Below are positions 2,639 through 63,799 of a stretch of DNA of 64,000 bases, piece after piece (positions within the stretch are counted from its first letter, which is position 1; every line of letters begins with the position of its first letter). This DNA comes from Candidatus Lloydbacteria bacterium RIFCSPHIGHO2_02_FULL_50_18. GTDB lineage: Bacteria > Patescibacteriota > Minisyncoccia > Phycocordibacterales > UBA6899. Where the stretch lies: positions 64,001 to 128,000 of the forward strand of contig MHLM01000004.1 of NCBI GenBank assembly GCA_001821395.1, written 5' to 3'. Below the pieces are notes generated by a model. It saw only the letters and a list, made by a program, of their open reading frames with translations. It made no database searches and was not told the DNA's origin. A program made the translations under genes and the position numbers.

Positions 2639-3325
2639 ATGTCGCTAATGATCTATTTCGATAATGTGACGAAACTATACTCTGACCACGCCGCGGTGTC
2701 GGACGTTACCTTTGGCATTGAGTCGGGGGAATTCCTCTCGATTGTAGGGCATTCGGGTGCCGGGAAAACGTCGCTGTTGCGCCTTCTTTTGGTAGAAGAT
2801 AGGCCGACGTCAGGTGCCGTTTTTTTTGAAAAAACCGATATCCATCGTATCAAGGCCGCTCATGTGCCGGAATATCGCAGACGCATCGGTACTGTTTTTC
2901 AGGATTTTCGGCTGTTTCCCAATAAGACTGCGTATGAGAATATTGCGTTCGCACTTGAGGCTGCCGGACGTACCGATGAGGAGATCCGCTCCGATGTTCC
3001 GCAGGTGCTCGAGCTTGTCGATCTTGCGTCAAAAGCGCTGCATTTTCCGCACGAGCTCTCCGGAGGGGAGAAGCAACGTGTCGCCATCGCGCGTGCTATC
3101 ATTTCGCAACCCGATGTACTGATCGCCGACGAGCCGACGGGAAATCTCGACCCGGTGAATACCTACGACATCATTCAGATATTGAAGAAGATCAATGACA
3201 TGGGAACAACGATCATTTTGACGACGCACAACAAGGGGATCATCGACGCGCTGAAGAAGCGGGTGGTGACGATGGAGAATGGGAAGGTTATACGTGACGA
3301 TGCTCACGGCAAATATATTCTCTAA
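2639..3325 (+). CDS. ftsE: Cell division ATP-binding protein FtsE
   Basis: Walker A GHSGAGKT, LSGGEKQR signature and Walker B IADEPTGNLD. Lies immediately upstream of an FtsX-like permease. Confidence 0.85.
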   Translation: MSLMIYFDNVTKLYSDHAAVSDVTFGIESGEFLSIVGHSGAGKTSLLRLLLVEDRPTSGAVFFEKTDIHRIKAAHVPEYRRRIGTVFQDFRLFPNKTAYENIAFALEAAGRTDEEIRSDVPQVLELVDLASKALHFPHELSGGEKQRVAIARAIISQPDVLIADEPTGNLDPVNTYDIIQILKKINDMGTTIILTTHNKGIIDALKKRVVTMENGKVIRDDAHGKYIL

Positions 3326-3444
3326 TATTTTCGCGCCTCACTTTGTTGTAAGGCAGCGCACTTATGCCCCAGCGACTCGGTCAACATATATGAATATGTC
3401 TTCCTTGTCGCTTTCCCCGCGCCTCGTGATGCATCGAAAATATT
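3324..3444. repeat. Repeat family R2 copy 1 (core 3366..3428) bounded by a perfect 10-bp inverted repeat AATATTTTCG/CGAAAATATT
   Basis: The core is about 85% identical to 37514..37580. The flanking inverted repeat is specific to this locus. Confidence 0.6.
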
Positions 3445-3695
3445 CGAGAATATTTCCTGCATGGCTTCGCTCTTTATCCAAAATCTTAAAGAATGATACA
3501 TAGAACTTCAACCAACACTGACACTAGAGGACGCGTTGCGCCTCGTGATGTGACCAATTTTTCTCAGCGGTACTCCGCTTTAGAAAAATGAAATGCCCTC
3601 TGTGGTACATCAAAAATATTTCGGCCGGCATATTGACATAATCAGTTATTTTCATAGGATGAGTATTGGAAGAGTTTGAAAAGGAGAATTGACCA

Positions 3696-3895
3696 TGAAA
3701 CTGAAGCAGGGTTCGGTAAGGCGTGCATGCGCTCTTTTTGCGACTTTTTGTGCCGCAGTGGCAATGACCGGACTTATCATTTGGGGTTTAGACTTGCTGG
3801 TGGTGAAGGCCGTCGAGATCGCTCCGACATTCATTCCGGTCGAGCTCTATCCTCCGCATCATGCTTGTGTTGACATCATTCCTCTATGCCCTTAG
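3696..3895 (+). CDS. Small hydrophobic hypothetical protein (66 aa)
   Basis: An AAGGAGA ribosome-binding site lies 7 nt upstream of ATG 3696. One predicted TM segment. No homology recognised. Confidence 0.3.
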
Positions 3896-4307
3896 ACTCG
3901 TTAAAGGAACTGTTCTCGGACCGAACCAGAAGGGGAGGATAATCCTCGACAGGGTAAACCGACAGAGGGAAACGAAAAGATCTCAAGCGGCATGCTCGCG
4001 TGGATGCACGCGTAATGCCAAGGGCTTAGCCGTAACGGGGCGCGCCAGCACCTGACATCCCGTAGGGGACGAGGGTTTGAGAGATCAGCCATAAAACGGG
4101 TGCCTTATCATCCGTGGCAAATCGCCGGAGAATAGTTCTGCCATTTCAAACGTCGCATACTCGTGCGGCGTTTTTTCTTTTCCGAGGACCACCCAAACAT
4201 GGTGAATTTCTTTATTTCGGGATTCTCGTGATTCGGTCGCCATGCATGAGTGAATGGCCTCACCTGTCCACTTCGCTTTTCTGGTCAATTCATGCGAAAA
4301 TACCCTC

Positions 4308-7234: not shown

Positions 7235-9130
7235 ATGATTCAAGAGACCGCTCTTACTATTATGAAAACGGGGGCGAATGTATTCCTCACGGGGGAGCCC
7301 GGGAGCGGTAAAACGCATACCGTAAACGCATATATCCGCTACCTCCGCGAGCACAACGTCAATCCTTCGATCACTGCTTCAACGGGTATCGCCGCGACGC
7401 ACGTCGGCGGGATGACCATTCATTCATGGAGCGGTATCGGCATCAAGCGTGCGCTCACCGAATATGACCTCGATGCGCTGTCCTCGAACGAAGGACTTGT
7501 GAAGCGTATCGCCAATGCAAAGGTGCTTATCATCGATGAGATATCGATGCTCGACGGCAACACGCTGGTCATGGTGGAGGCGGTCACGCGAACGCTTCGT
7601 CGCAAGCACGAGCCTTTCGGCGGACTGCAGATAATTTTCGTCGGCGATTTCTTTCAGCTGCCTCCCATCGCGGACCGGGCAAGCGGTGTTCGTGCGCAGT
7701 TTTGTTTCGAATCAACAGCATGGCGAGTGGCGAATCCCATAGTGTGCTATCTCTCCGAGCAGCACCGTCAGGAAGACACCGCGTTTCTCTCTACGCTTGG
7801 CGCCATTCGCCGCGGAGAGCTCGAGGATAGCGTCTTTGAATATATCGGCGAGAGGCACGTGCTCCCAGGTGAGCATCCACACGACATTCCGCAGCTCTAT
7901 ACGCACAACATTGATGTCGACAAAAAGAATACGGAAGAGCTCGCAAAACTTGAAACGGAAGAAAAGGTCTTTCTCATGAGCACGAAGGGGACGAGCAATC
8001 GCGTGGAGCAGCTGATCAAGGGCTGTCTTTCACCCGAGGAACTGGTGTTGAAAGAAGGCGCATCGGTGATGTTCACCAAAAATAATTTTGAAAACGGCTA
8101 TGTGAACGGCACATTGGGGACGGTGGTGGGATTCGACGAGGACAATGGTTTTCCAATTGTTGAAACATCGGGCGGAGAAAATATTACCGCGCTTCCTTCC
8201 GAATGGGCCGTTGATGATTCTGGGAAAGTGCTCGCCACCATCACTCAGGTACCGCTCCGACTCGCGTGGGCTATTACCGTGCACAAGAGCCAGGGGATGA
8301 GCCTTGATGCCGCGACGATGGATCTCTCGCGCGCATTTGAATACGGGCAAGGGTATGTGGCACTCTCTCGTGTACGCGCATTCTCGGGATTGCACATCCT
8401 CGGCATCAATCAGCGCGCATTCGAGGTGCACCCTCTTGTGCTTGAGCGCGACCTCGCGTTTCACGAGCGTTCGGATGAAGCGGAGGCGGGGTTTCTCGAC
8501 ATGTCGGACGCCGACCTCCGGAAGTTACACGAGAACTTTTTACTCGCCATTGGAGGGAATCTGGCGAAAAAAGAAATCATTGCCAAGGCATTCGGTGTTC
8601 CAAAACTGAGTACGTATGAAGAAACGCTCGCGCTCCTCAGCCCCGGGATGACGCTCGCCGCGATTGCCAAGCGTCGGGACGTGACCGAGGGGACGATCGT
8701 GGGCCATATCGAAGAACTCGCGCTACTCGGAAAGCTCCCGTCGATAGACATCGCCGCCTTTGCCGAGCTTCCTGCGTCGGTGGTGAAGGAGATAACGCAA
8801 ACGATCGAGACGATCGGAGGAGAATTTCTCAAGCCGCTCTACCTTGAATTGGATGAACGTTATTCTTATGAAACGATCCGTCTTGTTCGATTCGGAGCGG
8901 GCATTGCTCCGAAGCAAAAAGACGCCGTCGTTGCGAAAAAAGAAAAGGTAAAAAAGGTGTCACATGAAAAACCCGCAAAGCTCGGAGCGAAGTGGGGAAA
9001 GGAAGAGGAAGAACGACTCACAAAAATGTTCAAAGAGGGAAAGAAGACGAAGGACATCGCACAGACACTTGAACGGCAGTCGGGGGGTATCCGTGCTCGT
9101 TTGAAGAAGCTGGGGCTGATAAAAAAATAG
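7235..9130 (+). CDS. PIF1/RecD-family ATP-dependent DNA helicase with C-terminal HTH-like domains
   Basis: Walker A GEPGSGKT, Walker B LIIDEISM, the QLPPI motif and VHKSQG. The C-terminal roughly 190 aa carry HTH-like segments. Confidence 0.75.
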   Translation: MIQETALTIMKTGANVFLTGEPGSGKTHTVNAYIRYLREHNVNPSITASTGIAATHVGGMTIHSWSGIGIKRALTEYDLDALSSNEGLVKRIANAKVLIIDEISMLDGNTLVMVEAVTRTLRRKHEPFGGLQIIFVGDFFQLPPIADRASGVRAQFCFESTAWRVANPIVCYLSEQHRQEDTAFLSTLGAIRRGELEDSVFEYIGERHVLPGEHPHDIPQLYTHNIDVDKKNTEELAKLETEEKVFLMSTKGTSNRVEQLIKGCLSPEELVLKEGASVMFTKNNFENGYVNGTLGTVVGFDEDNGFPIVETSGGENITALPSEWAVDDSGKVLATITQVPLRLAWAITVHKSQGMSLDAATMDLSRAFEYGQGYVALSRVRAFSGLHILGINQRAFEVHPLVLERDLAFHERSDEAEAGFLDMSDADLRKLHENFLLAIGGNLAKKEIIAKAFGVPKLSTYEETLALLSPGMTLAAIAKRRDVTEGTIVGHIEELALLGKLPSIDIAAFAELPASVVKEITQTIETIGGEFLKPLYLELDERYSYETIRLVRFGAGIAPKQKDAVVAKKEKVKKVSHEKPAKLGAKWGKEEEERLTKMFKEGKKTKDIAQTLERQSGGIRARLKKLGLIKK

Positions 9131-9184
9131 ACAAAAATTTGAAAGCGAGAGGTATTTGACAAGTGCGATAAACTACTGCAGGAT
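9070..9184 (+). repeat. 115-bp direct repeat, copy A (last 61 nt of the helicase CDS plus the downstream TTGACA-containing region)
   Basis: About 90% identical to 10906..11020. Contains TTGACA at 9156..9161. Confidence 0.8.
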
Positions 9185-10905: not shown

Positions 10906-11020
10906 TGAACGCCAGTCGGGAGGTATTCGCTCTCGTTTGAAAAAGCTGGGGCTGATAAAAAAAAGACATACATTTGAAGGCAAGGAGGTATTTGACAAGT
11001 GCGATAAACTACTGCAGGAT
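10906..11020 (+). repeat. 115-bp direct repeat, copy B (contains an out-of-context fragment of the helicase C-terminal coding sequence)
   Basis: Translates to QSGGIRSRLKKLGLIKK, which matches the helicase tail. TTGACA at 10992..10997. Confidence 0.8.
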
Positions 11021-12941: not shown

Positions 12942-13012
12942 TGCGGGTTCGTCTAATGGTAGGACATCGCCCTCTGGAGGCGAGTATTGGGGTTCGAGTC
13001 CCTGACCCGCAG
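12942..13012 (+). tRNA. tRNA-Gln (anticodon CTG)
   Basis: U1:A72 acceptor stem TGCGGGT/ACCCGCA, D-arm GTCT..GGAC, anticodon stem TCGCC/GGCGA with loop CTCTGGA, T-loop TTCGAGT, and discriminator G. CCA is not encoded. Confidence 0.8.
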
Positions 13013-13018
13013 CAAATG

Positions 13019-13046
13019 AAAACACCCCTTTTAATGGGGGTGTTTT
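13019..13046 (+). terminator. Hairpin terminator after tRNA-Gln
   Basis: AAAACACCCC-ttttaa-TGGGGGTGTTTT. Confidence 0.6.
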
Positions 13047-13060
13047 CATTTGCGAGGAGA

Positions 13061-13082
13061 GGAAGCCATCTGCATGGCTTCC
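13061..13082. repeat. 22-bp perfect palindrome GGAAGCCATCTGCATGGCTTCC, copy 1, embedded in an inverted copy of the tRNA-Gln 3' half
   Basis: Identical 22-mer at 61685..61706. Flanked by TTTGCG and GGCAGGGACTCGAA, which match the reverse complement of the tRNA-Gln T-arm and acceptor 3' strand. Confidence 0.8.
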
Positions 13083-13165
13083 GGCAGGGACTCGAAGCCG
13101 TTCTCCCATATTTTCGAGACATTCTTATGTTGAGAAAATAGGAAACGGGTACTGACGCAGTAGGC

Positions 13166-13189
13166 GTCGAGATTCCCTGACCCGCAGCA
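13166..13189 (+). repeat. Direct repeat of the tRNA-Gln 3' end (16 nt exact: TCCCTGACCCGCAGCA), att-like
   Basis: Identical to 12999..13014. Located 160 bp downstream of the tRNA. Confidence 0.8.
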
Positions 13190-13236: not shown

Positions 13237-13255
13237 CGCGGGTCAGGGACTCGAA
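13237..13255 (-). repeat. Inverted copy of the tRNA-Gln 3' end (CGCGGGTCAGGGACTCGAA), forming a roughly 35-bp imperfect hairpin with 13174..13209
   Basis: Reverse complement of TTCGAGTCCCTGACCCGCG. Confidence 0.75.
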
Positions 13256-33827: not shown

Positions 33828-33921
33828 GGCATTGCCTTTTGAGGGCACGCATAAAATTCTGCTGAATTTTTGCTCAGACTCCGCGCCGTCGCGCTCCGTA
33901 GCCCCTCAAAAAGCAATGCCT
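33828..33921. repeat. 19-bp perfect inverted repeat GGCATTGCCTTTTGAGGGC/GCCCTCAAAAGGCAATGCC separated by 56 nt
   Basis: Seen directly in the sequence, downstream of the ABC-F stop codon. Confidence 0.6.
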
Positions 33922-36438: not shown

Positions 36439-37470
36439 CTATGGGGTGCGCTGAAATAGTCGCAGTAGAAAAGCAAAAAGGATGTCGTACCACCTTGGTA
36501 TGTACGTTTGAGCGGGAAATGGTAGCGCCTCGTTCATCCAGAGCGCTATGATCTTTCTGAGTTCGGCCACCATGTGCTTGTTGTCAAAAAAGATGCCCGA
36601 TTCGACATTCCAGTCAAATGACAGCGTGTCGAGGTTTTGAGAGCCCATTGTTCCTATTCGGTCATCAACAAGCATGACCTTTGCATGGTTCATCCCGACG
36701 CCCAAGAGGCAGTGCACGCCGATCTTTTCGAAGCGGCTTGCATAATAATAATTGATTCGATCAAGGTATGCATGGTCTGTGGTTTTCGGGATGATGATGG
36801 TCACCACGACCCCACGCATGACGACGCGATGGAGGTGCGCCACCATCCAAGGATGGGGTATGAGATAGGGTGTAACGAGCACGATGCTGTGCTGTGCGCC
36901 ATCAATGTGTTCCTCATAGTGTGCGCGTAATCCGCGAAATTTTTTCTGCACTCCGTTTTCAATGAACCATGTGCGTGCACGACTCCAAAGTTTGGGTTCG
37001 TTCGCAAAGATGAGCGCAGGGTTCTTCCCACCGCATTCACGATAGACACGCGCAAAAGAGCGAACGGCTATTTTTGCAACACGACCGGAGACACGCACTT
37101 GCAGGTCCTTCCAGCGAGCGAATTGTCCGGAGATGTTCACCCCGCCAAGGAAGACGGACCACTCGTCGATGATGAGCATTTTCCGATGTGTGCGACGGAG
37201 CCAATAGCTGAAGAGTCGCACTTCTGCGCCTGCGCTCTTGAGTCGCTCGATCGCTTCATTGGCCAGCCCAAAGCTCCCGAATGCGTCGAGAATAACCACG
37301 ACACGAATACCGGCACGCGCCTTGACCTCAAGTTCTGAAAGAAAATCATACCCCGTTGTATCACCGTCAAAGACATACATTTCGAGATAAATACTCTCCT
37401 TCGCGCCAATGATCGCTTGGAGCATTGCATCCCAGGCATGCTCTGATGTGGTGTAGAATTTACCGCGCAT
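36439..37470 (-). CDS. Phospholipase D family protein / cardiolipin synthase-like
   Basis: Two HKD motifs: HRKMLIIDEWSVFLGGVN and HAKVMLVDDRIGTMGSQNLD. Confidence 0.75.
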   Translation of the reverse strand: MRGKFYTTSEHAWDAMLQAIIGAKESIYLEMYVFDGDTTGYDFLSELEVKARAGIRVVVILDAFGSFGLANEAIERLKSAGAEVRLFSYWLRRTHRKMLIIDEWSVFLGGVNISGQFARWKDLQVRVSGRVAKIAVRSFARVYRECGGKNPALIFANEPKLWSRARTWFIENGVQKKFRGLRAHYEEHIDGAQHSIVLVTPYLIPHPWMVAHLHRVVMRGVVVTIIIPKTTDHAYLDRINYYYASRFEKIGVHCLLGVGMNHAKVMLVDDRIGTMGSQNLDTLSFDWNVESGIFFDNKHMVAELRKIIALWMNEALPFPAQTYIPRWYDILFAFLLRLFQRTP

Positions 37471-37475
37471 AATTT

Positions 37476-37599
37476 AAATTCAGTTCACTACCCCTATCTG
37501 CTTTGTTGCGGGGGCCCCTGCGACGCGGTCACCATATAAGAATATGTTTTCCTTGCCGCTTTCCCCGCGCCTCGCGTATAGGGGCATTGAACTGAATTT
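37476..37599. repeat. Repeat family R2 copy 2 (core 37514..37580) enclosed by a 22-bp inverted repeat AAATTCAGTTCACTACCCCTAT/ATAGGGGCATTGAACTGAATTT
   Basis: The core is about 85% identical to 3366..3428. The flanking inverted repeat (20 of 22 bp) differs in sequence from the one at copy 1. Confidence 0.6.
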
Positions 37600-37671
37600 A
37601 TGATAGATTATAGCGTATTTTTTAGTATTCCACTTCTCCATCGGGTAAAAATCCATGTATAATGCCATCCT

Positions 37672-38724
37672 ATGGATATTGTATTCCCGTCTTTCCTATT
37701 CTATTTGGTATTTCTTTATTTTGCCGACAAGTGGCTTGCTGCACGTCCATACAAGGGTCCGCATTCTGACCACTTCAATGGAAAAAAATTCTACAGCTGG
37801 GGAATGCGTCCCGGGAATGGTTTGGAGGAGCACAATGACTGGAAATTATTTTTCAGATGGGTCAAGCATCGTATGACGAGTAAGTGGCACTATGAAAAGA
37901 ATCGCTTTCATGCAAAGCCTAGAGCACGCGTTCTGGGCGGCGAGATGGTTGTCACCTTCGTGAATCATTCGACGGTGCTCATCCAAACTGAGGGATTGAA
38001 TATCATCACCGATCCGGTGTGGTCGAAACGCGTGAGTCCGTTCATCGGCATCGGACCAAAACGTTATCGTTCCGCCGGCGTCGACTTCAATGATCTCCCT
38101 CCGATCGATATCGTGCTCATTTCGCACAACCATTATGACCATATGGATATTCCGACGTTGAAGCGTATCAACAAGCAATGGAAGCCAAAGATATATGCGG
38201 GACTTGGTAACGCAAAATACTTGCGTCAGCATGGTGTGCGCGGTGCCTTGGATATGGATTGGTGGGATAAGGATGTCGCGAGCAAGGACGTTTCGATTGT
38301 CTGCGCACCCAGCCAGCACTTTTCATCGCGCGCGTTTTCCGACCGCAATAGAACGCTGTGGTGCGGATATGTCATTGAGACGCCACATGGTGATATCTAT
38401 TTCGCAGGGGACACCGGGTACGGTCCATTCATAGAGAAGTTGCATGAACGGTACAAAAAGTTTCGTCTCGCATTTCTGCCTATCGGCGCATTTCGTCCGG
38501 AGTGGTTCATGGGGCCGGTGCACGCATCTCCCGATAAGGCACTCCAGATGCACCACGACCTCAAGGCACAGATGTCAATCGCCATTCATTTCGGAACGTT
38601 TCATCTTGCGGATGATCATCAGGATGAACCGCTTCTGCGTATCCGCCATTTGCTGGCGGTCGCCCCGGAGCCCAAGCCGAATTTCATTCTGCTCGAGAAT
38701 GGCGAGCCGACGACGGTCGATTGA
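37672..38724 (+). CDS. MBL-fold metallo-hydrolase, NAPE-PLD-like
   Basis: ISHNHYDHMD zinc-binding motif and the overall pattern of the NAPE-PLD family. Confidence 0.65.
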   Translation: MDIVFPSFLFYLVFLYFADKWLAARPYKGPHSDHFNGKKFYSWGMRPGNGLEEHNDWKLFFRWVKHRMTSKWHYEKNRFHAKPRARVLGGEMVVTFVNHSTVLIQTEGLNIITDPVWSKRVSPFIGIGPKRYRSAGVDFNDLPPIDIVLISHNHYDHMDIPTLKRINKQWKPKIYAGLGNAKYLRQHGVRGALDMDWWDKDVASKDVSIVCAPSQHFSSRAFSDRNRTLWCGYVIETPHGDIYFAGDTGYGPFIEKLHERYKKFRLAFLPIGAFRPEWFMGPVHASPDKALQMHHDLKAQMSIAIHFGTFHLADDHQDEPLLRIRHLLAVAPEPKPNFILLENGEPTTVD

Positions 38725-61551: not shown

Positions 61552-61626
61552 TCCGGTGTAGCTCAGTGGTAGAGCAGTGCGCTGTTAACGCATTGGTCGC
61601 AGGTTCGAATCCTGCCGCCGGAGCCA
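61552..61626 (+). tRNA. tRNA-Asn (anticodon GTT), CCA encoded
   Basis: U1:A72 acceptor stem TCCGGTG/CGCCGGA, anticodon loop CTGTTAA, T-loop TTCGAAT and a 3' CCA. Confidence 0.85.
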
Positions 61627-61639
61627 ACAAATTTCGTGG

Positions 61640-61668
61640 AAAAGACCCGTATGGGGTCTTTTTCTTTT
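61640..61668 (+). terminator. Hairpin terminator after tRNA-Asn
   Basis: GACCC-gtat-GGGGTC followed by TTTTTCTTTT. Confidence 0.65.
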
Positions 61669-61669
61669 G

Positions 61670-61719
61670 TTGGCTCCGGGCGGAGGAAGCCATCTGCATG
61701 GCTTCCGAAAGGATTCGAA
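61670..61719. repeat. Inverted copy of the tRNA-Asn 3' half interrupted by palindrome GGAAGCCATCTGCATGGCTTCC (61685..61706)
   Basis: TTGGCTCCGGGCGG and AGGATTCGAA match the reverse complement of the tRNA 3' strand. The insert is flanked by AGGA on both sides. Confidence 0.8.
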
Positions 61720-61780
61720 AAGCTTGGTGTTGTTTTGTCTTCAAAACCACCAAGGTGTACCGTCCATGTAATGGAAGAAA

Positions 61781-61843
61781 CTCCTGCACCACAAGAGTAC
61801 TTCATTTTTCTAAGACGGAGTACCATTAAGAAAAATTGGTCGC
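61781..61843 (+). repeat. Repeat family R1, copy 2
   Basis: About 85% identical to 2378..2445. Confidence 0.7.
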
Positions 61844-61958: not shown

Positions 61959-63557
61959 ATGAAAAAATACATATCCATAGCTTTCATTATTGTTGTGGTT
62001 ATTGGTGTTTTTTTATTTTTTCTTGGTAGTTCTACCAACAATAATCTCATTGGAGATAGCGTTAGGATGACCCGCTTACTCGTCAATGGGGTACCTTCGA
62101 GCGGTGGTTTTGTGAATGTGACTTATTTGGAAAGTGAGGAAAAATATCCTGTGATAAATATTGCGGTGGACTTAAACAAAGACGGTGTTATCAAGTCTTA
62201 CGAGGTTGATGGGGGTATTCAGGAAGAATGGCTTGTCACGAATATGTATGCCCAAGTGGTTGGTGGGTCAAAAAATAATTACTCTATTTCTATAAAAGAC
62301 ACAAAACTTGATAGTAAAACTGACCTGCCGGTGTATGTAGTCTTAAGTGAAAATGAGATAAAAGACTGGTCTGGTGAAAAAGTTTCCGGAGGTATATATA
62401 AAGAAATTTTATTATCCAAAATAGATACAATGGATTATGGATCACTGTATGCTCCGGATCCGGAAGGTGAGCGGGCCGGTGGGTCACCATTGGGTTCTGT
62501 TCTGTCCAATAAGGTTTTTGCATATGATGCCGTTAATGAATACAGGACAGATGTTCCTGACATTGATCAGGGGTACAACGAGTGTGTCCCCACGTCCATC
62601 GCCAATTCACTTTTATGGTTAGCTGATAAATATAAGTTTCTCGATAAATTGCCAAAGGGGGGTGATAAAGATTTAATCGCTGAGCTTAAGAGTGACTTAA
62701 AATGGACAAAGTATGGTGTTTTGCATAAAGACATTGTTCCCGGAATAAAAACTTTTATTAAGAGACATAAACTCTTGTTGGAAGCGCATCAAATAGGAGA
62801 AATTAGAGACGACGAAATCATGGCTAAAATAGCGGGGGAGCTTAAAAGGGGACAGGATGTTGAGGGTTGGCTGGAATATCGAGGATATTTTAAAAATGAT
62901 TCCTATCTGCGTAAGGGTGCTCACGTGGTTACGGTGGTTGGTGTTTGGACAAGTCCTCAAGGCACAAAATTTATCGGGTTAAATGATCCTCTGTCTCAAG
63001 GGGGTCATGCGACAGATATTTATGAACTCAGTGGAGTGCAGGTTCTCGATTATGCTTTTCAGGGTGATTATGAGACATATCTCATTTCCGCTTTTGCTGA
63101 GTCACCCATTTCTGAAGAGGAGGTTATGCCGTCTGTTACCATAGATAATTCAAGTATTAAATTAATAAAAGAAACTCATCCTTCCGGTGGAACCACGCGC
63201 ACTTGTTTGGTCACATTGTCAGGAACAGCTACCGGACCGGAGTGCAGTTATGTAACGCTTCAGGGTGGCAAACCTGGCACTGGGTCTACGATGGATATGA
63301 ATGGGGCGGAAAGTTGCCCAGATTGGTCATATTGGGGTACGAGTGGATTTTGTGTTCGTCATCTTAAGCAAAATAATACTACAGCATGGAGTGTTACTTT
63401 TGAGGCTTCTACGTATTGGGGTAAAACTGATTTAGATTTTAGTATAATGTTGGGGGCACCAAAACTGCCTCTCGAAGATCTTTATGGAGGAAATGTTTGT
63501 GCCTCAACTGAAACAGATCAAAAAATATACGATACAATATCTTTGGAGTGTAAGTAA
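61959..63557 (+). CDS. Secreted protein with a predicted papain-like (C39-like) cysteine peptidase domain, in an AT-rich island-like context
   Basis: Signal anchor. YNECVPTSIANSLLWL Cys motif and a GAHVVTVVGV His motif. Visibly lower G+C than the neighbouring genes. Confidence 0.45.
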   Translation: MKKYISIAFIIVVVIGVFLFFLGSSTNNNLIGDSVRMTRLLVNGVPSSGGFVNVTYLESEEKYPVINIAVDLNKDGVIKSYEVDGGIQEEWLVTNMYAQVVGGSKNNYSISIKDTKLDSKTDLPVYVVLSENEIKDWSGEKVSGGIYKEILLSKIDTMDYGSLYAPDPEGERAGGSPLGSVLSNKVFAYDAVNEYRTDVPDIDQGYNECVPTSIANSLLWLADKYKFLDKLPKGGDKDLIAELKSDLKWTKYGVLHKDIVPGIKTFIKRHKLLLEAHQIGEIRDDEIMAKIAGELKRGQDVEGWLEYRGYFKNDSYLRKGAHVVTVVGVWTSPQGTKFIGLNDPLSQGGHATDIYELSGVQVLDYAFQGDYETYLISAFAESPISEEEVMPSVTIDNSSIKLIKETHPSGGTTRTCLVTLSGTATGPECSYVTLQGGKPGTGSTMDMNGAESCPDWSYWGTSGFCVRHLKQNNTTAWSVTFEASTYWGKTDLDFSIMLGAPKLPLEDLYGGNVCASTETDQKIYDTISLECK

Positions 63558-63799
63558 TGTATAGCGGATAGAATTCCTTGAAGAACCGGACCTATTTGAA
63601 TAAAAGCAAAAGAAAAACACCGCGTTGAGGATGTTTTTCTTTTGTTGATGCTTCGTGCAGCGAGCGGAGCTCGCTGGCTGGAACCGAACACCGGAGTATA
63701 AATTTTCAGCAGAAAATATTACGAGGCGGTGCGCAGACCAAAATGTTGCGACGGCAATATTTTGCGTCGCAGGAGAAATTCCTGCCGCCGGAGTCTTTC

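Follow-up and report, generated by a model that had tools for sequence, protein, structure and literature searches.

The 64,000-nt window analyzed here is part of a 176-kb contig from a groundwater population of Candidatus Lloydbacteria (Parcubacteria), and it contains two intact copies (A and B) and one decayed copy of a small repeat. The conserved part of the repeat is a core, called R2, that begins CTTTGTTG and ends CCTCG. The full element is a rod-like hairpin of about 105-140 nt with the R2 core at its tip. Copy A lies between two divergent genes, one encoding a PLD/cardiolipin-synthase-like protein (36439-37470, minus strand) and the other an MBL-fold hydrolase (37672-38724, plus strand). 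Copy B begins within the last codons of ftsE (open reading frame (ORF) 2639..3325), inside the 930-nt spacer between ftsE and ftsX, and the decayed copy lies upstream of ftsX. Related Lloydbacteria contigs that were compared with the window are referred to by locus number (L010-L037).

The core of copy A (37501..37574, plus strand) is the short form of R2, 74 nt in length, and scores 97.8 bits with covariance model R1. It is enclosed by an outer stem, inverted repeat I1, whose left arm (37475..37497, plus strand) lies 4 nt from the start codon of the PLD-like gene (37470) and whose right arm (37578..37600, plus strand) lies 72 nt upstream of the MBL-fold gene (37672). The arms are 23 nt long and 91% complementary, and four of their pairs are altered on both sides among orthologs of this copy. 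Copy A is identical across six independent assemblies, and an assembly artefact was rejected for that reason.

The core of copy B (3341..3426, plus strand; 92.5 bits with model R1) is a long form of 86 nt with an extra TAAGGC..ACTTATG module. Its inverted repeat, I2, has arms of 19 nt that are 95% complementary, with one bulge. The left arm (3315..3333, plus strand) covers the final three ftsE codons, the stop codon (3323-3325) and the next 8 nucleotides, while the right arm (3435..3453, plus strand) matches an inverted copy of the present ftsE end at 18 of 19 positions. Cores A and B are 90% identical over 61 ungapped nucleotides, the 5' module of B being 12 nt longer, whereas the two arm pairs have no sequence in common. 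A degenerate 48-nt pattern of the core matched the window twice, versus no match in 100 shuffles, and none of 2000 shuffled flanks reached the observed complementarity score at either copy.

The original prediction, a short reading of the letters of the window, had described a conserved core within unrelated inverted repeats, and this description was borne out at both places and at the further loci considered below. Some of the dimensions had to be enlarged: the repeat around copy A, given as 22 bp, is 23 nt, and the core, given as about 65 bp, is 74 or 86 nt. Likewise, the unrelated 10-bp repeat reported at 3324..3444 is real, but it is the inner 10 nt of the 19-nt stem of copy B.

A search of the window with nhmmer and an unfiltered covariance-model scan found no third intact copy, only the decayed one. 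This remnant (about 4184..4261, plus strand) was delimited by an alignment made by eye, by blastn with its flanks, and by a covariance-model hit at 4210-4282 (17 bits, E 0.045). It is the ortholog of an intact copy in L013 (1525-1623), and it retains the outer arms, GAGGACCA / TGGCCTC, together with the 5' part of the core, whereas about 50 nt of the 3' part of the core are gone.

Related loci and layered arms

Nine copies of R2 at seven independent loci are known: A (with orthologs in L026 and L029/L030), B, L010, L011, L013, L023 and L031. Loci L010 and L011 emerged from a pattern scan of public metagenome_contigs, which gave two real copies and three chance matches, while L013, L031 and the A orthologs were reached by fetching loci via FtsE and PLD homologs. 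Comparison of the translations of the core in its four open frames with 5.8 billion proteins returned 17 candidates and one match, which led to L023; considering that there was a single match in so large a collection, the family is either rare or seldom called as an ORF. Scans with core patterns also gave one chance match in genome_contigs (in a proteobacterial metagenome-assembled genome) and five chance matches in viral_contigs. The covariance model detected one copy each in L010, L011, L013, L023, L026, L029/L030 and L031, and none in L015-L017, L027 or L034. The window holds about one R2 per 20-30 kb, and several relatives hold none.

Every R2 location is intergenic, and presence is patchy even among close relatives. 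The neighbors are functionally unrelated (ftsE, ftsX, a pilC-like gene, SpoU, transketolase, PLD, and a umuD-like/Y-family-polymerase pair), and the orientation of R2 relative to them is mixed: four copies follow a stop codon in the orientation of the gene, one has the opposite orientation, one lies between divergent genes, and one lies upstream of ftsX. The copy in L031 (19245-19375), whose orientation is opposite to most others, is found between genes for an S24 peptidase (LexA/UmuD-like) and a Y-family DNA polymerase (IMS), in an apparent umuDC-type operon. In L023 (575-1168), the gene for a transketolase C-terminal subunit does not extend beyond the Transket_pyr domain (158 aa). Its stop codon falls within the outermost layer of the arm, and this gene may have been truncated by the R2 element or by a rearrangement there.

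The flanks are complementary in all nine copies at all seven loci, as had been expected if they were always palindromic, and no copy with non-palindromic flanks was encountered. The degree of complementarity varies. As with copies A and B, none of 2000 shuffled flanks reached the observed score in L026, L011 or L023; two or three did so in L031 and L010 and 31 in L029, while L013 has a weak 7-nt repeat whose score was reached by 114 of the 2000 shuffles. The cores can be nearly identical where the arms are not: core B and the L011 core agree at 98% over 61 nt, and their arms (stems of 14-19 nt) are unrelated. The similarity of these two cores is the reason that copy B appears to be a recent one.

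Comparison of the arms indicates that the stem is built in layers. The outermost 7-20 nt are specific to each locus. Further in, some layers are held in common: the A locus and L011 have an inner layer CAMTASCC / GGSTATTG, and the copies in L010 (after the SpoU gene) and L023 (after the transketolase gene) have TAGGRCTTACGSAAATGG. Four loci, which we call subfamily 2, have the layers GAAyTTC and AAATGG/CCAT in common, and these layers are also found around an unrelated module, Y. More specifically, the terminal layer GGCGAAyTTC / CGAAyTTCATCC encloses an R2 core in four loci and the unrelated center of Y in L037. Since the same terminal layer can surround either R2 or Y, the family is modular, and centers seem to be swapped inside an existing hairpin element.

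In subfamily 2, which has the shared inner inverted layer, the junctions lack a direct repeat; no motif is common to the outer boundaries of the seven loci (CATAAT|TTAAAT, CAAAT|ATATTC, TAAGG|CCAATC, TTTG|AATAGG, TTTCGG|GACCGC, and others), and the inner junctions also have no conserved nucleotide motif. With outer arms that are unrelated between loci, and with neither conserved terminal inverted repeats nor a target duplication, R2 is not a classical miniature inverted-repeat transposable element (MITE), just as had been suggested. The presence of the core at unrelated loci likewise agrees with the earlier view of it as a mobile or duplicative module.

Sites without the element and the record behind ftsE

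Orthologous sites that lack R2 were compared at three loci. At the A locus, R2 with orthologous arms is present in L026 (PLD 95% identical) and L029 (PLD 83%), whereas in L027 (PLD 81%) and the outgroup L031/L033 (76%) the spacer is short and both arms are missing. The whole 126-nt hairpin is therefore the unit of insertion or deletion. Locus L027 is a sister of L029, being 88% identical to it versus the 81-83% identity of the two to the window, and the absence of R2 from L027 is most simply read as a clean loss of the hairpin. At the end of ftsE, L034-36 (FtsE 92%) and L015-17 (88-91%) have the same gene end with no inverted copy downstream. Upstream of ftsX, R2 is intact in L013 and decayed in the window, and L034 has neither R2 nor arms. 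Because the sites without R2 at these three loci are also without a hairpin, the hairpins were in all likelihood not there beforehand. The original prediction had proposed that the core was inserted into pre-existing hairpins, and this proposal finds no support at the PLD/MBL, ftsE and ftsX sites.

The ftsE site allows the two arms of copy B to be ordered. The same ftsE gene end occurs in relatives that carry no element, and hence the left arm predates the element; since this arm consists of coding sequence and a stop codon, the right arm must be the derived one. In agreement with its being new, the right arm (3435-3453) is absent from L034-36, L015-17, L013 and L037.

Two more right arms lie beyond it. 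A segment at 3465..3499 (plus strand) is homologous to L013 984-1016 and is the fossil of an older hairpin element, X, comprising its 3' end and right arm (3481-3499); this arm mirrors the L013/L034-type ftsE end ATTCTTTAAGATTT, with 14 nt exact and 18/19 overall. Farther out, a segment at 3503..3531 (plus strand), common to L037 4800-4836, is the fossil of a still older hairpin. It comprises the terminal layer GAACTTCAACC and, at 3512-3531, a right arm mirroring the ftsE end of the L037 type, TCCTCTAGTGTCA, with 13 nt exact and 18/20 overall. The corresponding intact elements are found in relatives: the ftsE site of L013 carries hairpin element X with perfect 18-nt arms built from the ftsE end, and that of L037 (FtsE 99%) carries element Y, whose imperfect arms measure about 32 nt and are likewise built from the ftsE end. 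Three different modules (R2, X and Y) have thus occupied this site, each with a right arm that mirrors the gene end, and the window retains a concentric record of them behind ftsE.

Modules X (L013 893-1016; L011 991-1089, minus strand) and Y (L037 4705-4836) have arms that mirror the end of the upstream gene. Module X shows a covarying pair of segments, GGCAG/CTGCC versus GGTGG/CCACC, and in L011 it lies directly 3' of R2.

If a hairpin acquires its outer stem by folding back on its flank, one arm should be present at the empty site and the other should be a new reverse complement of it, a few to about 35 nt in length. This is what is found at ftsE for R2 (19 nt), X (18 nt) and Y (about 32 nt). 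At the A locus it is not, both arms being absent from the empty sites.

The ftsE-ftsX spacer also seems to contain a small transcription unit of its own (3633-4173), with promoter-like sites at 3633-3660 and 3870-3898, an ORF of about 66 codons (ATG at 3695) that has a good ribosome-binding site and encodes a hydrophobic peptide, and a canonical terminator at 4148-4173. A similar small ORF and terminator are also present in L034-L037.

Origin and function of the repeat

What is the R2 core, and is it maintained? On both strands, RNA folding of copies A and B gives a single long rod-like hairpin that is far more stable than shuffled sequences (z -5.3 to -8.0). The minus strand (z -7.4 and -8.0) folds better than the plus strand (-5.3 and -5.7) and is the more stable one in 7/8 copies; it has purine-rich AA/GA internal loops, and its lower folding energy may be due just to these. 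Folding as single-stranded DNA also falls below shuffles (z -4.4 to -6.5). Mismatches of the wobble type give no strand signal, with 20 G.T versus 23 A.C. Among orthologs of the A locus, 88% of the cells of the alignment pair, and there are five double-sided pair changes (four of them in the outer helix) versus 0-2 in slid controls; the apical stem adds two covarying pairs across loci. Double-sided changes can be produced by template switching as well as by selection on a functional RNA with a selected basal stem (P1).

Between the window and L026 the core is 97% identical, while fourfold-degenerate sites of the two flanking genes are 69-71% identical; for L029 the values are 83% (over the 3' 60 nt of the core) and 40-44%. 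A core that is so much more conserved than fourfold sites is constrained, and at the PLD/MBL locus it is under purifying selection rather than junk. Homogenization by other copies (concerted evolution) was considered for the A locus and rejected, the locus-specific variants GACGCGGTCACC being present in all three orthologs. In addition, the bases left unpaired in the asymmetric internal loops are the same at every locus; the conserved internal-loop bases include GGTCA / TTCCTTG.

In Rfam, only two tRNAs reach the gathering score in the window, and nothing relevant was found around A or B at E values up to 10. The promoter scan found no sigma-70-like promoter in or beside either copy; a weak minus-strand promoter-like site (8/12) to the right of copy B was noticed by eye and carries no weight as evidence. 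The terminator scan flagged neither copy, and there is no run of T residues after either right arm (canonical terminators occur elsewhere, such as the one at 4148-4173). A 62-aa ORF over copy A (37480..37668, minus strand) is unsupported, as every difference between A and B alters an amino acid and the frame stops inside B. Pfam searches of 20 ORFs from the window, including the large unassigned ones, gave no match to a transposase, Y1 TnpA, TnpB, IscB or RAYT-like protein; the called genes of the fetched related loci include no transposase, TnpB or IscB, and blastn against phage and plasmid collections found no R2 match.

We tentatively prefer the explanation that R2 is a module of a small, lineage-restricted and non-autonomous family of hairpin repeats, similar to REP/BIME elements, that spread by DNA-templated copying with fold-back of the flank and were then kept as structural elements. 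In this scheme, which is drawn from the sequence comparisons above, a donor hairpin would be copied by DNA-templated synthesis, either through template switching or as a templated insertion at a break or stalled fork, and the new copy would carry along a variable stretch of the donor stem. The copied hairpin is a strong quasi-palindrome, and it could cause the nascent strand to snap back and copy a few to about 20 nt of the flank in inverted form, generating a new outer stem layer. Later template switches, selection, or both would keep the stem paired, and no dedicated transposase would be necessary. Perhaps a related process is visible after tRNA-Asn, where the terminator stem reaches outward into the acceptor end (61610-61631 / 61666-61687, 22 nt, 86%); we count this extension into the 3' end of the tRNA in favor of copying with fold-back, as it is the same outward growth as that of the R2 arms. 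The role that is retained might be that of a long stem-loop in transcripts, acting at mRNA 3' ends, between cistrons or in processing, as REP/BIME, ERIC and Correia repeats do, with the conserved asymmetric internal loops recognized by some factor. Such a transcript-level role is the most economical guess.

Could R2 simply be a structured functional RNA, either a cis-regulatory element of untranslated regions or a small RNA, with a variable riboswitch-like P1 stem and with copies that arose by ordinary duplication and divergence? The excess of core conservation over fourfold sites and the invariant unpaired bases argue for this, as do the compensatory changes in P1, P2 and the apical stem, the folding of both strands far better than shuffles (the minus strand best), and the location of the minus-strand form at the A locus directly 5' of the PLD start codon. 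It is difficult to see, however, how slow compensatory drift could give cores that are 98% identical within unrelated stems, or stems made from gene ends, both of which need a templated DNA process. The mixed orientation, the neighbors that belong to no one functional class and the lack of a promoter make a dedicated regulatory RNA less favored still, and neither strand shows an excess of G.U pairs, no intrinsic terminator or Rfam match was found, and presence is patchy among close relatives. We consider a functional RNA of this kind rather unlikely. A DNA site that acts regardless of orientation and for which transcription is irrelevant, at which a nucleoid-associated protein, topoisomerase or replication factor binds or a cruciform forms, as has been proposed for BIMEs, would accommodate the mixed orientation, the lack of a wobble strand bias, the uniformly intergenic locations, the single-stranded DNA fold and the conservation of a core with asymmetric sequence. 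Nevertheless, protein-binding sites do not usually have 20-bp stems and an imperfect 74-nt core, few copies have been seen so far, no binding protein is indicated, and the DNA-site reading alone leaves the origin of the arms unexplained; we regard it as improbable.

The view from which this analysis started, that a transposable core (IS200/IS605-like or a miniature derivative of such an element) enters the loops of existing hairpins, has some attractive features, and it can be widened to a core that works like IS1397 and other elements targeting REP palindromes. The tip is conserved and the base variable in every copy, the GGCGAAyTTC / CGAAyTTCATCC layer holds either the R2 core or the Y center, copy B is surrounded by remnants of an older hairpin element, and the L013 copy of R2 adjoins an intrinsic terminator; moreover, insertion sequence (IS) elements that target REP palindromes are documented (PMC1525189). 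The three empty orthologous loci without a hairpin speak against it. So does the ftsE site, where the right arm is new and mirrors the current flank while the older arm is still present further downstream. The specific link to IS200/IS605 elements also found no support: there is no junction motif or target tetranucleotide, no pair of left- and right-end hairpins, no Y1 transposase, TnpB or IscB in the 20 scanned ORFs of the window, and no phage or plasmid match. Insertion of a transposable core into existing hairpins is thus very improbable.

Several points also weigh against copying with fold-back. Selection on the core and the conserved unpaired bases point to a specific function, and a functional RNA with a selected P1 stem would likewise yield compensatory changes. 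The arms at the A locus are absent from the empty sites and so must have come with the element, such that fold-back alone is insufficient. The history of the ftsE site is not a simple tree, with one fossil arm held in common with a 99% relative and another with a 94% relative, and it needs recombination between strains or repeated hits. There is no unambiguous before/after pair of an insertion among near-identical genomes, and just seven loci are known. The search for a mobilizing enzyme covered no more than the 64-kb window and some 200 kb from relatives. Finally, exact inverted repeats of at least 10 nt with interiors of 20-160 nt number 16 in the window versus 7.7, an excess of only about 2-fold; growth of palindromes is not pervasive.

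Copying with fold-back can be extended into a bolder proposal, namely that R2, X and Y all spread without a transposase by template switching or templated break repair, that each insertion adds an inverted layer of flank, so that hairpins gain shell upon shell and, as downstream of ftsE, leave fossil arms in concentric order after genes, and that the host keeps some of them as structures in which the 3' end of the upstream gene, stop codon included, is paired. This full version we hold to be unlikely.

The window contains other repeats near tRNA genes and elsewhere. The tRNA-Asn (61552-61720) and tRNA-Gln (12942-13100) regions each continue with a canonical terminator, behind which the 3' half of the tRNA itself is repeated in inverted form. 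A hairpin common to both regions, GAGGAAGCCATCTGCATGGCTTCC (13059-13088 and 61683-61712), interrupts the two inverted copies at an equivalent position. The 3' end of tRNA-Gln recurs in further direct and inverted copies at 13171-13185 and 13238-13252. A partial direct copy of the tRNA-Asn 3' end lies 2.17 kb downstream of the gene (63766-63793), and it may represent the distal att site of a small integrated element that includes a 532-aa ORF (61959-63557, no Pfam match). A third repeat family, AGAGTACTTC..TTCTAAG..AAGAAAAATTGGTCGC, with about 80% identity, is present at 2396-2445, at 61794-61843 and, on the opposite strand, at 3552-3609; R2 copy B has one of these copies about 100 nt downstream of it. 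At 33828-33920, an inverted repeat of 18 nt (94%) starts a few bases after a stop codon and has a 57-nt interior with CTCCGCGCCGTCGCG, which is similar to the R2 3' end; it was not recognized as a family member by nhmmer or the covariance model. Lastly, two consecutive genes (a 631-aa ORF and a 541-aa BT1-family ORF) have their 3' ends and the following sequence in direct repeat, 1836 nt apart (9070-9127 / 10906-10963, 58 nt, 90%; 9149-9184 / 10985-11020, 36 nt, 100%).

Comparison with known systems

REPs are described as sequences of 20-40 bp with a GTAG or CGTC tag at one end, present in hundreds of copies and linked to RAYT transposases (PMC3733652, PMC2817692). R2 resembles REP/BIME elements in being a short, imperfect, non-coding intergenic palindrome that often lies just after stop codons and has a presumed role as an RNA or DNA structure, and also in its mosaic neighbors, R2 being found with X in L011 and in the window. 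It differs in its length of 74-86 nt, in having no tag and no RAYT-like Pfam match, in its low abundance (two copies and one remnant in 64 kb), and in varying at the base of the stem rather than in the loop.

The ERIC (IRU), Correia (NEMIS) and similar repeats of enterobacteria or Neisseria are single long imperfect hairpins of 100-170 bp that are intergenic, are transcribed with their neighbors, and have known or proposed effects on mRNA stability or processing. The R2 element, at about 105-140 nt, is likewise one long, imperfect, intergenic hairpin. The difference is that ERIC and Correia repeats are conserved over their full length, including terminal inverted repeats, with a TA target duplication in the case of Correia, whereas copies of R2 share only the center, with ends that come either from the donor or from the new flanking sequence. 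A general description of such hairpin repeats is available (PMC2229807).

The processes that most resemble the proposed origin of R2 are known from mutation and break repair. Template switching can make perfect stems, or repair them, in a single event (PMC8794818), and DNA breaks gain fold-back inverted duplications of 5-34 bp as well as insertions templated from distant fragile loci (PMC11724301). As in the R2 arms, a reverse-complement copy of adjacent sequence is placed beside a hairpin, the range of 5-34 bp spans the 7-20 nt of the outer R2 layers, and several stem positions can be fixed at once. The known cases, in contrast, come from rRNA genes, E. coli quasi-palindromes and yeast breaks. 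To our knowledge, these processes have not been described as spreading a repeat family with locus-specific stems.

Among mobile elements, the IS200/IS605 family is similar in its dependence on hairpins and in having neither terminal inverted repeats nor target duplications, and the apparently scarless absence of R2 from L027 resembles precise excision. Insertion into palindromes is also known for some IS elements (PMC1525189). R2, however, is one continuous hairpin, with no left-/right-end pair, no target or cleavage tetranucleotide and no target hairpin. Integron attC sites provide a further parallel, as they are imperfect palindromes right after a stop codon that vary in sequence by gene while keeping their fold. 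The pattern of conservation is the reverse of that in R2, since attC conserves the outer core sites (RYYYAAC / GTTRRRY) and varies in the center; in addition, R2 is flanked by housekeeping genes, with no integrase or cassette array.

If the proposed mechanism is true, R2 would be a natural example of template switching that makes long perfect stems and moves a module, and it would explain how a long hairpin that includes the stop codon of a gene could originate in one step. Spread without a transposase, if true, would amount to a new mode of repeat propagation and would leave a record of template switching in genomes with a reduced DNA-repair repertoire. Apart from mechanism, the fact that the core is conserved so much more strongly than synonymous sites suggests that R2 is an unrecognized structural RNA or DNA element in bacteria of the candidate phyla radiation, a group in which, as far as we know, almost no non-coding elements have been characterized. 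If the mechanism is wrong, R2 is still a lineage-specific intergenic repeat, although one of limited reach, being rare and seen in only a few contigs of groundwater Lloydbacteria.

Bacteria commonly carry small palindromic repeats, and the ends of REP, ERIC, Correia and MITE sequences are conserved because they are recognized by enzymes. Judged by the copies compared here, R2 appears to be unusual among the small palindromic intergenic repeats in having a conserved tip and an improvised stem, and in contrast to the families with conserved ends, its stem would be built from local sequences or carried between them.

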